Assembly (NCBI GenBank): GCA_026395915.1
Contig: JAPLXU010000020.1
Location: 18,729-82,728, forward strand
Direction: 5' to 3'
DNA from: Candidatus Nomurabacteria bacterium
Lineage (GTDB): Bacteria; Patescibacteriota; Minisyncoccia; Phycocordibacterales; UBA9973
DNA: 64,000 bases
The translations under genes and the position numbers were made by a program. The notes under the pieces are model-generated. The model saw only the letters and a list, made by a program, of their open reading frames with translations. It was not told the DNA's origin and ran no database searches. Of the stretch, positions 60,462-62,056 are shown piece after piece (positions within the stretch are counted from its first letter, which is position 1; each line of letters starts with the position of its first letter).

Positions 60462-60491
60462 AAAAAACCACCCCTCTTGGGGTGGTTTTTT
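60462..60491. terminator. intrinsic terminator aaaaaccacccc-tctt-ggggtggtttttt (A-run/T-run flanked, bidirectional)
   Basis: 7-bp GC stem with U-run; read directly. Confidence 0.75.
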
Positions 60492-60551
60492 GTATTTGTT
60501 AGTAGTATAATAACATTGTGTTCATTATTAGTTAAAAAATTTAGTTTATTT

Positions 60552-60908
60552 ATGTCAAAAAGAAATATCATCATAGTGGTTGCAGTTGTTTTAATTATAT
60601 TGGCAGTCGGTTTTTATTTTAACAAGAAAAGCGCAAGCAATCCTTATTCTGTCGTGTATCTTACGACAGGGGAAGTATATGTGGGTGAATTGACGACAGT
60701 TCCCGATTTAACCCTTAAAAATGGCTATATTTTGCAAGTTACTAAGGATGCGACTGACGCGACAAAGAATACTTTTCAGCTTAATCCGATAAGCCAGGCT
60801 CTTTGGGCTCCGAAGGTTCTTCATCTCGTAAAAGACAATGTTGTTTTTTACGGTCCGCTCATGTCAACCAGTAAAATCGCGCAAACTCTTGCCGGACAAG
60901 CGAAATAG
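60552..60908 (+). CDS. small N-terminally anchored membrane protein (118 aa)
   Basis: TM IIIVVAVVLIILAVGFYF; listed ORF start 60477 overlaps terminator so ATG at 60552 preferred; its 3' end is duplicated after the Fic gene. Confidence 0.6.
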   Translation: MSKRNIIIVVAVVLIILAVGFYFNKKSASNPYSVVYLTTGEVYVGELTTVPDLTLKNGYILQVTKDATDATKNTFQLNPISQALWAPKVLHLVKDNVVFYGPLMSTSKIAQTLAGQAK

Positions 60909-60989
60909 TAGACTGTCGTGAATTTTTGTTGTTTTTAGGATAAATTCACGGTAATTTGACAAAAAATCGTGAATTACTATAGTTAATAT

Positions 60990-61880
60990 ATGATTATACA
61001 ACAACAAATCAAAAATCGTTTAAAAGAACTGAAAGAGCGTTACAATTCTCTTAGAATTGGCAAGGATGATCTCTTAAAGCTAATAGAGGAAGCAGAAGTG
61101 GCAGAATCAGTTTATAACTCAAATGCTATCGAAAATTCAACGCTTACGCTGAAAGAAACTGAGCGAATTCTTCTGGAACTTGAGGTTGCGCGTCAAGTTT
61201 CTTCTCGTGAGATTTTTGAAGCGAAAAATCTCGCTAGAGTTTCTGAATATATCAGAGAAAAAGCAAAAACCATTGATATAAATGAAGAAATAATTTTATT
61301 TCTTCACAAAATGCTTATTACAGCAATCAGAGATGACATTGCTGGCAGATTTCGTGCCGTTGGGGAGTATGTTCGTGTAGGAAGTTATATTGCTCCTGCG
61401 CCGGAATATATTAAGAATATGATCAAAAGAGCTATTGCAGAATACGACAATAACCATGAATCATATTTCATAGATAAAATTGCGAAGTTTCATTTAGAAT
61501 TTGAAAATATACATCCATTTAATGATGGGAACGGTCGTATTGGACGGGTACTTATCAATTGGCAATTAATTCGTTTTGGTTTTCCTCCTATAATTATTCG
61601 AAATAAGGAGAAGTCTGATTACTATGATTCATTTGCTTTGTATAGAGATAAAAGCAATATTAGACCAATAGCAAAGATAATAGTTCTTGGGCTTATGGAA
61701 TCATTGCATAAACGAGTCGCATATCTAGAGAATGCCCAGATTATAAAGCTATCTGAGTTTGCCAAAATGCGCCACAAAACTGCTTCAGCTCTTGCAAATG
61801 CTGCTAGACGTCAAACAATTCCCGCTTTTCGAGAAAAAGGTGTTTGGAAAATATCTACGAATTCAATATTGTCTAGTTAA
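60990..61880 (+). CDS. Fic/Doc-family protein (class II Fic with N-terminal inhibitory motif and C-terminal HTH)
   Basis: Fic motif HPFNDGNGRIGR; inhibitory helix motif SNAIEN (S/TxxxE(G/N)); C-terminal HTH-like KLSEFAKMRHKTASALANAARR. Confidence 0.85.
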   Translation: MIIQQQIKNRLKELKERYNSLRIGKDDLLKLIEEAEVAESVYNSNAIENSTLTLKETERILLELEVARQVSSREIFEAKNLARVSEYIREKAKTIDINEEIILFLHKMLITAIRDDIAGRFRAVGEYVRVGSYIAPAPEYIKNMIKRAIAEYDNNHESYFIDKIAKFHLEFENIHPFNDGNGRIGRVLINWQLIRFGFPPIIIRNKEKSDYYDSFALYRDKSNIRPIAKIIVLGLMESLHKRVAYLENAQIIKLSEFAKMRHKTASALANAARRQTIPAFREKGVWKISTNSILSS

Positions 61881-61891
61881 TGTAATTAGCT

Positions 61892-61981
61892 TTCCATCTC
61901 GTAAAGGACAATGTTGTTTTTTATGGTCCGCTTATGTCCGATAGCGAGATCGCTCAGACCTTGGCAACGAAAGGGAAGTAA
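61892..61981 (+). pseudogene. start-less duplicate of the 3' end of gene 60552..60908 (encodes ...HLVKDNVVFYGPLMSDSEIAQTLATKGK*)
   Basis: 44-bp block 41/44 identical to 60822-60865; in-frame stop upstream, no start codon. Confidence 0.6.
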
Positions 61982-62056
61982 CCTCATCCCTGACCTTCCC
62001 CTGAAAGGGGAAGGGGTTTTCCTCCTCTCCTTTCAGGAGAGGATTTAGGTGAGGTG
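61981..62056. repeat. tandem GC-rich hairpins ccttcccctgaaaggggaagg and cctctcctttcaggagagg-N-ggtgagg
   Basis: second hairpin block nearly identical (34/35) to 56461-56495. Confidence 0.8.

Follow-up and report, generated by a model that had tools for sequence, protein, structure and literature searches.

A single-gene class II Fic module inserted behind a small membrane-protein gene in Candidatus Nomurabacteria and bracketed by two diverged copies of the gene end

The DNA analysed here, called the window throughout, is a 64-kb stretch of Candidatus Nomurabacteria, a member of the candidate phyla radiation, and the element in question is a gene of the Fic family which together with its own promoter forms a compact module. 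The module was inserted just past the stop codon of a small membrane-protein gene, in this lineage only, and is bracketed by the end of that gene on one side and by a start-less, diverged copy of the same gene end on the other. On the basis of these scars and of their recurrence at Fic loci of other genomes, we hold with moderate confidence that the module, which probably represses its own promoter, has no recombinase of its own and spreads through recombination, anchored by homology, with the DNA of another lineage.

The locus consists of the intact small membrane-protein gene (118 amino acids, aa; 60552–60908), a spacer of 81 nt (60909–60989), the class II Fic gene (296 aa, 60990–61880), the start-less copy of the final 28 codons and stop of the small gene (61895–61981), which begins 14 nt past the Fic stop, and two hairpins (61994–62064), with the genes, the copy and the hairpins all on the forward strand. 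On re-analysis, the small gene, the Fic gene, the gene-end copy and the hairpins were all located where a first-pass annotation, made from the sequence alone, had placed them. Both the small protein and the Fic protein were 100% identical to NCBI entries labelled Candidatus Nomurabacteria, and the stretch 58490–62187 was matched at every position by four assemblies made independently of one another from different runs, so the arrangement is not an assembly artefact. Position 62187, which lies 307 nt past the Fic stop and ahead of the next gene, was the common endpoint of all four short-read assemblies carrying the locus, and this suggests strain variation or a repeat at that point.

The insertion was identified by comparison with 34 species-level relatives, in which the surface-protein gene is followed by the small gene and, after ca. 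280–410 nt of spacer, by the gene of the repeat-rich protein. The Fic gene was absent from the site in all 34 genomes and is thus an insertion in the window, where the surface-protein gene (1139 aa, 56978–60397) and the repeat-rich protein gene (starting at 62339) take the corresponding places. When the 1 073-nt period of the flanking repeat is subtracted from the 1 431-nt spacer of the window, 358 nt are left, i.e. a spacer of normal length. The small protein had 255 homologues, all in Nomurabacteria and relatives, with family members of ca. 118 aa and a best non-self identity of 76%; searches of Pfam and NCBIfam returned no family match. The conserved synteny together with the spacing arithmetic indicates that the small gene is native, and likewise the strong intrinsic terminator at 60461–60492 (forward strand, perfect 14-bp stem followed by a T run). 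Being placed ahead of the native small gene, this terminator serves the surface-protein gene before it, and so the first-pass view of it as the left bound of the inserted unit had to be abandoned.

The limits of the unit itself were obtained from related cassettes in other genomes. Five-way alignment and blastn showed 76–87% DNA identity between cassettes from the first half-site of a putative operator (60916/60917) to the Fic stop codon (61880), with unrelated flanks on both sides, and the inserted unit is therefore ca. 966 bp long, from promoter to stop codon (ca. 60916–61880). The cassette-like insertion proposed earlier was in this way upheld by the 34 empty relatives and by the occurrence of the module at unrelated sites elsewhere, but within narrower limits than had been drawn. 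The GC percentage of the cassette was 33.9, against 40.4 for the window, which places it among the lowest 5% of windows of the same size, and the closest non-self Fic protein was 87% identical, as compared to 76% for the closest non-self small host protein. Fic relatives of 80–87% identity were found in differing neighbourhoods, i.e. between PemK toxin genes and an epimerase gene, next to nucleotidyltransferase genes, after a DUF2779 gene, and beside rpoB. Fic was the sole gene of the insert, without any recombinase gene, and the unit had neither terminal inverted repeats nor a half-site close to its right end. An integron-type cassette is not indicated, since the unit carries a promoter of its own and is not followed by any conserved sequence past the stop codon. 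No common att core was found among the junctions, as targets and junction offsets vary. Phage was considered as a vehicle and set aside: the viral contigs scanned held only distant, partial Fic proteins of at most 41% identity.

The two flanking copies form a direct repeat of 86 nt (60822–60907 and 61895–61980) with 74% identity, of which the first part is identical at 41 of 44 positions. It is the second longest direct repeat of the window (z=21.9 against shuffled sequences; blastn E=1e-14). The left copy represents the last 29 codons of the small gene (60822–60908). The right copy, delimited as a part of the locus at 61888–61981, is a displaced or foreign gene end that is no longer expressed within a gene; it reads in frame as HLVKDNVVFYGPLMSDSEIAQTLATKGK followed by a stop, with a TAA in frame just before it and the frame broken ahead of HLVK, and it belongs to no open reading frame (ORF) of 25 aa or more. 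The start-less duplicated gene end with its highly identical core, as described in the first-pass annotation, was thus confirmed, and the possibility that the fragment is part of a longer intact gene was checked and found not to hold, as it has no start and an in-frame stop just upstream. Between the copies there were 23 differences, 15 of these at third codon positions, and only 5 of the 29 codons changed the residue when 14.0 changes were expected (P<0.0002). The differences were spread unevenly, with 3 in 44 nt and 19 in the remaining 42 nt (P=5e-5), a pattern which fits orthologues that are most variable in their C-terminal tails. One of the changes in the right copy, from K to E, affects a residue that at least 90% of the small-protein family have in common.

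Downstream of the right copy, the first hairpin (61994–62014, forward strand; CCTTCCCCTGAAAGGGGAAGG and then GGTTTTCC) is terminator-like, occurs once in the window, and is probably the original terminator of the small gene, which would now end the Fic transcripts. The second (62018–62064, forward strand) is a dispersed, intergenic element resembling repetitive extragenic palindromes (REP), with 89% identity over 47 nt to positions 56458–56504, which are adjoined by an inverted copy at ca. 56508–56545. The dispersed hairpin element, TTTCCTCCTCTCCTTTCAGGAGAGGATTkAGGTGAGGT, is located in intergenic spacers, and comparable hairpins follow the small gene in relative L007 (Nomurabacteria RIFCSPHIGHO2_12_FULL_42_19), where they fill the spacer between two tandem small genes. 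Hence, the hairpins at 61994–62064 are native intergenic elements and not cassette ends: the REP-like elements noted at the right of the unit do exist, one as a dispersed repeat, but they do not bound the insert. It follows that the right repeat copy runs on into native-type sequence, and the right fragment is the probable displaced original end of the gene. In three relatives, IS200-like genes (Y1 transposase, Pfam PF01797) were observed (L012, 7170–7835; L018, 3198–3887; L027, 7362–8057), flanked by identical hairpins in a manner recalling REP-associated transposases; Pfam supported two of the three, and the L018 gene was assigned by sequence resemblance alone. These genes might be candidates for mobilising the hairpin elements of the window.

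For 76 non-redundant Fic loci, segments of 300 nt ahead of the operator and of 300 nt past the stop codon were compared with each other in search of brackets of the same kind, with a cut-off of z>5. A direct-repeat bracket was present in 12 of the 76 loci, against one of 76 in the reverse-complement control (P=0.001), and strain L121 gave a further case beyond these 12. Control ORFs of 200–450 aa from the same loci were bracketed in 13 of 217 cases (P=0.011 against Fic), and six of these 13 were selfish modules, among them a second, distant Fic family, an AbiEii toxin and three IS200-like genes. The bracket is accordingly a footprint of accessory-gene insertion in these genomes, which is enriched at Fic loci without being exclusive to them. 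Its geometry was constant, one copy abutting the operator side and the other beginning 0–80 nt past the Fic stop. The targets were 3′-ends of the small gene, of a dehydrogenase-like gene, of an OmpA-like gene and of a DUF2779 gene, 5′-ends of an epimerase gene and of a YchF-like GTPase gene (on the opposite strand), and several non-coding stretches, and in every coding bracket one intact gene was kept. The neighbourhood of the small gene is itself a hotspot for such modules. In relatives L001 (1368–2441) and L022 (1486–2571 and 2977–3597), modules with the second Fic family and AbiEii were located just upstream of the small gene, each bracketed by copies of a gene end and terminator; the second Fic family combines an N-terminal winged helix-turn-helix (wHTH) with a Fic domain, as tested against Pfam for the L001 member alone.

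The bias towards third codon positions was shared by four other coding brackets. Locus L052 had 21 differences (14 at third positions) with 6 residue changes against 13.6 expected, L065 had 23 (14) with 3 against 14.7, L115 had 3 (3) with none against 2.2, and L113 had 9 (5) with 2 against 6.3. When the five coding pairs including the window were pooled, 16 residue changes were observed against 50.8 expected under random substitution, none of 5 000 simulations was as low, and each pair on its own gave P<0.01. The five fragments contained no premature stop codons, despite a chance of ca. 0.5 of having one in three of the pairs and of 0.72 in a fourth. In L121, as read from the alignment, every difference across 79 nt was at a third position. 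As a start-less fragment is not under selection, the divergence predates the event, and the two copies were the ends of two working genes. One copy derives most simply from the orthologue in another lineage, having come in together with the cassette, and the suspicion voiced in the first-pass annotation, that the diverged flank is a footprint of recombination with a different lineage, thereby gains support from the window and from four other Fic loci.

Recombination at the junctions could be followed in a population of strains (L119 and L121–L124) in which the cassette lies after a DUF2779 gene. These strains had the left junction in common, with 97–99.5% identity upstream and over 99% in the cassette, and three different sequences then began 4–13 nt past the Fic stop. 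The gene-end fragment was retained in L121 only; in L122–L124, ca. 185 nt including the fragment were swapped for 23 nt. Scar loss thus occurs, and it may explain why most loci are without a repeat. Single-nucleotide polymorphisms between the strains were clustered. The flanking gene of L214 was 98–100% identical to that of L121 for 600 nt, 65–94% over the next 1 000 nt, and 98.5% again from the junction of tail and cassette onward, and the diverged part is a recombination tract which ends where homology with a cassette-free allele would end. The intact DUF2779 gene has an atypical, long tail (ALVEFNRISRK before the stop) which was found in cassette-bearing alleles only, while the fragment has the usual short tail of the family; here it is the fragment that resembles the native end, and the intact gene seems to have an imported tail. 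An empty DUF2779 site was searched for among cluster members and homologues, and none was present among the strain-level relatives. In L119 (4942–5194), the sequence after the Fic stop was replaced by another module with a RelE/ParE-like ending, as judged by eye from the translation alone.

The left end of the cassette (60916–60983, forward strand) consists of a putative operator and a promoter. Three half-sites, CGTGAAT (60917–60923), ATTCACG (60944–60950) and CGTGAAT (60968–60974), surround a −35 box TTGACA (60956–60961) and a −10 box TATAGT (60978–60983), which together give the best sigma-70 match of the region (11/12). The spacing is CGTGAAT, 20 nt, ATTCACG, 5 nt, TTGACA, 6 nt, CGTGAAT, 3 nt, TATAGT, 6 nt, ATG. 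The inverted pair of half-sites occurred once in the window (0.01 expected), the three 7-mers were packed into 58 nt, and elsewhere in the window the 7-mer was at chance frequency. An identical layout was found ahead of the Fic gene in most of the ca. 85 loci compared, down to 50% protein identity. The half-site varied by subfamily (CGTGAAT, CGTGAAA, CGTTAAT, AGTGAAT, CGTAAAT), and the predicted recognition-helix residues of the Fic protein (TASALAN, SHSNLIN, S(V/I)xALLN, APA(V/I)FN) co-varied with it. The C-terminal winged helix would thus be expected to bind the three CGTGAAT half-sites around the −35 and −10 boxes, by which the gene would repress its own promoter. The heptamer GAAATAG (60903–60915; GAAATGG in L035) was observed 7–8 nt before the first half-site in the window, in L119 and in L035, i.e. 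in three out of five close cassettes, and in the window and L119 it forms the Lys-stop of two unrelated upstream genes. As a part of the cassette it was set aside, being the family-typical Lys-stop of the small gene and missing from most loci; it could be due to chance, or represent a few additional bases of the mobile unit.

In the mechanism that we favour, DNA of another lineage, in which the module already stood beside the orthologous gene, would have been taken up and integrated by the homologous recombination of the host (recA is located at 51734–52774), anchored in the conserved gene end. The second junction would have been formed either by an illegitimate joint or by a single-crossover (“ends-in”) or inter-chromatid event. 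The outcome would be one intact gene, the module, and a non-identical second copy of the gene end, and later deletion of the scar would leave it in place at only about one locus in six.

Several observations weigh against this account. The module was not found behind the small gene in any potential donor genome, and the transfer into this particular site is therefore argued by analogy with the other loci. The closest relative of the small protein is only 76% identical, and either of the two copies may be the foreign one here; among 119 homologues, those nearest over the first 90 residues were about equally far from both C-termini, the left copy being nearer to the family consensus. As many as 84% of the Fic loci had no repeat. 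The tight and reproducible limits of the unit, from first half-site to stop codon, are unlike random illegitimate joints and require either trimming by deletion or a more specific mechanism, and the proposed steps do not account for the first insertion beside each new target. Common ancestry is a confounder in the co-variation between operator and recognition helix. Finally, the tandem small-gene duplicate of L007 offers another origin for the fragment in the window.

According to this last alternative, the lineage once had two small genes, both under selection, and the spacer and the initial 90 codons of the second copy gave way to the module in combination with a deletion. Relative L007 has such a pair (4001–4354 and 4649–5002) with 97.5% protein identity and with 12 of 15 nucleotide differences at third codon positions, and a paralogue remnant would account for both the synonymous bias and the continuity of the fragment with the native hairpins. 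The duplicate was present in only one of the 34 relatives, however, and is recent there, and the left end of the module must by chance fall 7 nt past the stop of the first copy. Moreover, the bracket recurs at no fewer than five unrelated gene ends, including that of the YchF-like GTPase, where repeated paralogy is not to be expected, and we consider a tandem remnant unlikely. Additional tblastn matches to the end of the small gene in L005 and L022 were rejected as chance matches.

A true long target duplication, in which a staggered break or template switching copied the recipient's own 86-nt gene end and the unused copy drifted, is judged slightly less likely still. The geometry agrees with the pattern described for restriction-modification systems (PMC2853133), in that the direct repeat exceeds 30 bp, the insert lacks a mobility gene and the site is empty in relatives; the copies were near-identical at some Fic loci (98% in L113, 96% in L068, and 93% in L115); and the K-to-E change of the right copy at a near-invariant position is as a drifting copy would have it. 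Drift does not explain the concentration of differences at third positions with frame and stop kept in all five coding pairs and with less than a third of the expected residue changes, nor does neutral decay predict the uneven spread of the differences along the window repeat.

Far less probable is a transposon-like or self-mobilising element, the ends of which would be recognised and moved by the Fic-wHTH protein or by a transposase in trans. From site to site the unit keeps conspicuously constant limits, and one of its ends carries putative binding sites for the encoded domain, but there are no terminal inverted repeats, no half-site at the right end and no short target duplication of fixed length, and the repeats are foreign in origin rather than duplications. 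Fic domains are not known for any nuclease or recombinase chemistry. A speculative variant, to which very little credence is given, is a single-gene mobile element promoting its own spread, with the operator-bound protein marking the left end and with nucleotidyl transfer, or modification of a DNA-processing enzyme, provoking breaks that would be repaired from the cassette template; such an element would explain the constant limits at many unrelated sites. Site-specific integration of a small non-autonomous element by a tyrosine or serine recombinase in trans, with the repeat as attL and attR in the manner of islands at tRNA genes or gene 3′-ends, is the most improbable of all, since no recombinase was located in or beside the unit, the targets share no core, the junction falls 0–80 nt past the Fic stop and nothing is conserved beyond that stop, even though elements integrating into gene ends do bring a replacement end and leave the displaced one, and the 44-nt part of high identity could have served as a core.

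The protein encoded by the module matched Pfam PF02661 with E=2e-21 (77 bits against a cut-off of 24). It has the active-site motif HPFNDGNGRIGR at H175–R186 (61512–61547) and the inhibitory motif SNAIEN at residues 44–49 (61119–61136), N-terminal to the Fic core, and both motifs were invariant or nearly so among 48 relatives. In the alignment with human FICD (E=1e-21), SNAIEN stood opposite the inhibitory TVAIEG. With SNAIEN N-terminal to the core and within the same polypeptide, the protein is a class II Fic by the usual definition (restated in PMC10628234); the assignment is by motif, the inhibitory region having a predicted local distance difference test score (pLDDT) below 50 in the structure model. 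The model had a mean pLDDT of 69.7 and was confident over residues 220–290, with a C-terminal winged helix at residues ca. 251–289 (61740–61856) in the order strand-helix-helix-strand-strand and with pLDDT 86–93. Pfam, the FICD alignment and the model together bear out the class II Fic with SNAIEN motif and C-terminal helix-turn-helix of the first-pass annotation. Foldseek of the whole model retrieved FICD and BT_2513 at template modelling (TM) scores of ca. 0.6. On grounds of family membership, the enzyme is presumably an autoinhibited AMP-transferase or de-AMPylase.

Among the PADLOC models, PDC-S04 (E=9.7e-36) and SoFic (E=3e-28) gave matches that express sequence resemblance only; by this resemblance the gene can be likened to single-gene candidate anti-phage systems, and it is possibly defensive. 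The scores were below the cut-offs for NCBIfam SoFic NF046030 (32.3 against 550 bits) and for mobile mystery protein B TIGR02613 (31.6 against 124.4 bits). A class I FicT/FicA pair was not indicated, as there was no separate antitoxin and no small ORF belonging to the unit in 60909–60989 or past 61880.

Elsewhere in the window, palindromic direct repeats (36844–36884 and 37388–37428; 43997–44027 and 44653–44683) bracket the ORFs 36884–37381 and 44039–44620, respectively, which encode proteins with PaaX_M / Cas2-like domains, the first of them lying in the kilobase where the AT content of the window is highest (GC 0.28), and these may be further small inserted modules. A 50-nt direct repeat of 78% identity (31871–31920 and 32630–32679) flanks a NUDIX gene (32197–32625), which is preceded by a 141-aa ORF of similar size, and it may be the repeated promoter region of tandem genes. 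The ORF at 33107–36841 encodes a class I aminoacyl-tRNA synthetase of 1244 aa with a histidine-phosphatase domain (Pfam His_Phos_1, residues 562–747) within its catalytic domain.

For genes without mobility functions, small defence and addiction genes are exchanged between genomes far more than would be expected. The ca. 85 related loci constitute a clean system for the question of how this comes about, as the unit extends from promoter to stop codon, its junctions bear scars that can be dated, and there is a signature of synonymous divergence. Where flanking copies diverge at synonymous positions only, they show that part of the adjacent gene moves together with the cargo as a homology arm. 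If general, this would explain the exchange of accessory genes in candidate-phyla-radiation bacteria, which have tiny genomes and few classical mobile elements, and it would refine the long-target-duplication model of restriction-modification systems. The putative operator in turn provides a concrete DNA target for the Fic-wHTH class, which so far has been understood through non-specific binding only.

Among known patterns, insertion with long target duplication (Nobusato et al. 2000; Furuta, Abe and Kobayashi 2010, PMC2853133) comes nearest. Restriction-modification insertions of this type are reported mainly from naturally competent species, and their near-identical copies have been read as duplications of the target (PMC2853133). 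The Fic module resembles them in being a small selfish or defensive unit without a mobility gene, with empty sites in relatives and with direct repeats of variable length, from tens to hundreds of bp, often placed over a gene end. By the measures of Furuta et al. 2010, the insert is shorter than 20 kb, is missing in 34 relatives, has syntenic flanks and a direct repeat of more than 30 bp, and lacks a mobility gene. In place of near-identical copies of the host's own target, however, we found copies of 74% identity, with differences biased to synonymous positions here and at four other loci. It further differs from the known cases in its cargo, a single Fic gene with its own operator, and in its hosts of the candidate phyla radiation.

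With one homologous anchor and a variable other end, the scars also resemble homology-facilitated illegitimate recombination and inter-chromatid integration (PMC3240628, PMC3784515). In the inter-chromatid model, duplications arise if a donor fragment pairs by its two ends with one and the same locus of both sister chromatids, and such integration of transforming DNA has been demonstrated in Streptococcus pneumoniae (Johnston et al. 2013, PMC3784515). Those were laboratory events in Acinetobacter, Streptococcus and E. coli, whereas the mechanism proposed here is read only from sequence scars in uncultivated bacteria.

At the protein level, the combination of a (S/T)xxxE(G/N) helix, a HPFx(D/E)GNGRxxR site and a C-terminal wHTH in a stand-alone gene is shared with CbFic2 of Coxiella, SoFic of Shewanella (PDB 3eqx) and Sofic, the last of which is reported to act in phage defence through toxic AMPylation (PMC12249575). 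The similarity to SoFic is low (PDB E=1.7e-5 over 63 residues), and the best solved relative is human FICD. CbFic2 is a class II Fic with a C-terminal wHTH that is regulated by DNA and for which only non-specific DNA binding has been reported (PMC10628234). By analogy, the winged helix of the window protein may couple DNA binding to enzyme activity, as in CbFic2, and it would differ from CbFic2 in having a specific three-site operator on its own promoter. The patchy spread, the differing sites and the neighbours (PemK, a RelE/ParE-like ORF, AbiEii and nucleotidyltransferases) are like those of toxin-antitoxin and addiction modules, with the difference that the Fic module is a single gene with intramolecular inhibition and no separate antitoxin, and with toxicity that is only conjectural here. 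A literature search on this Fic family in Patescibacteria returned no relevant paper. What is new to these comparisons is the definition of the limits of the module, its conserved operator with a putative auto-regulatory role, the finding that the bracket recurs at different genes, and the codon-position evidence for a piece of the neighbouring gene that travelled with it.

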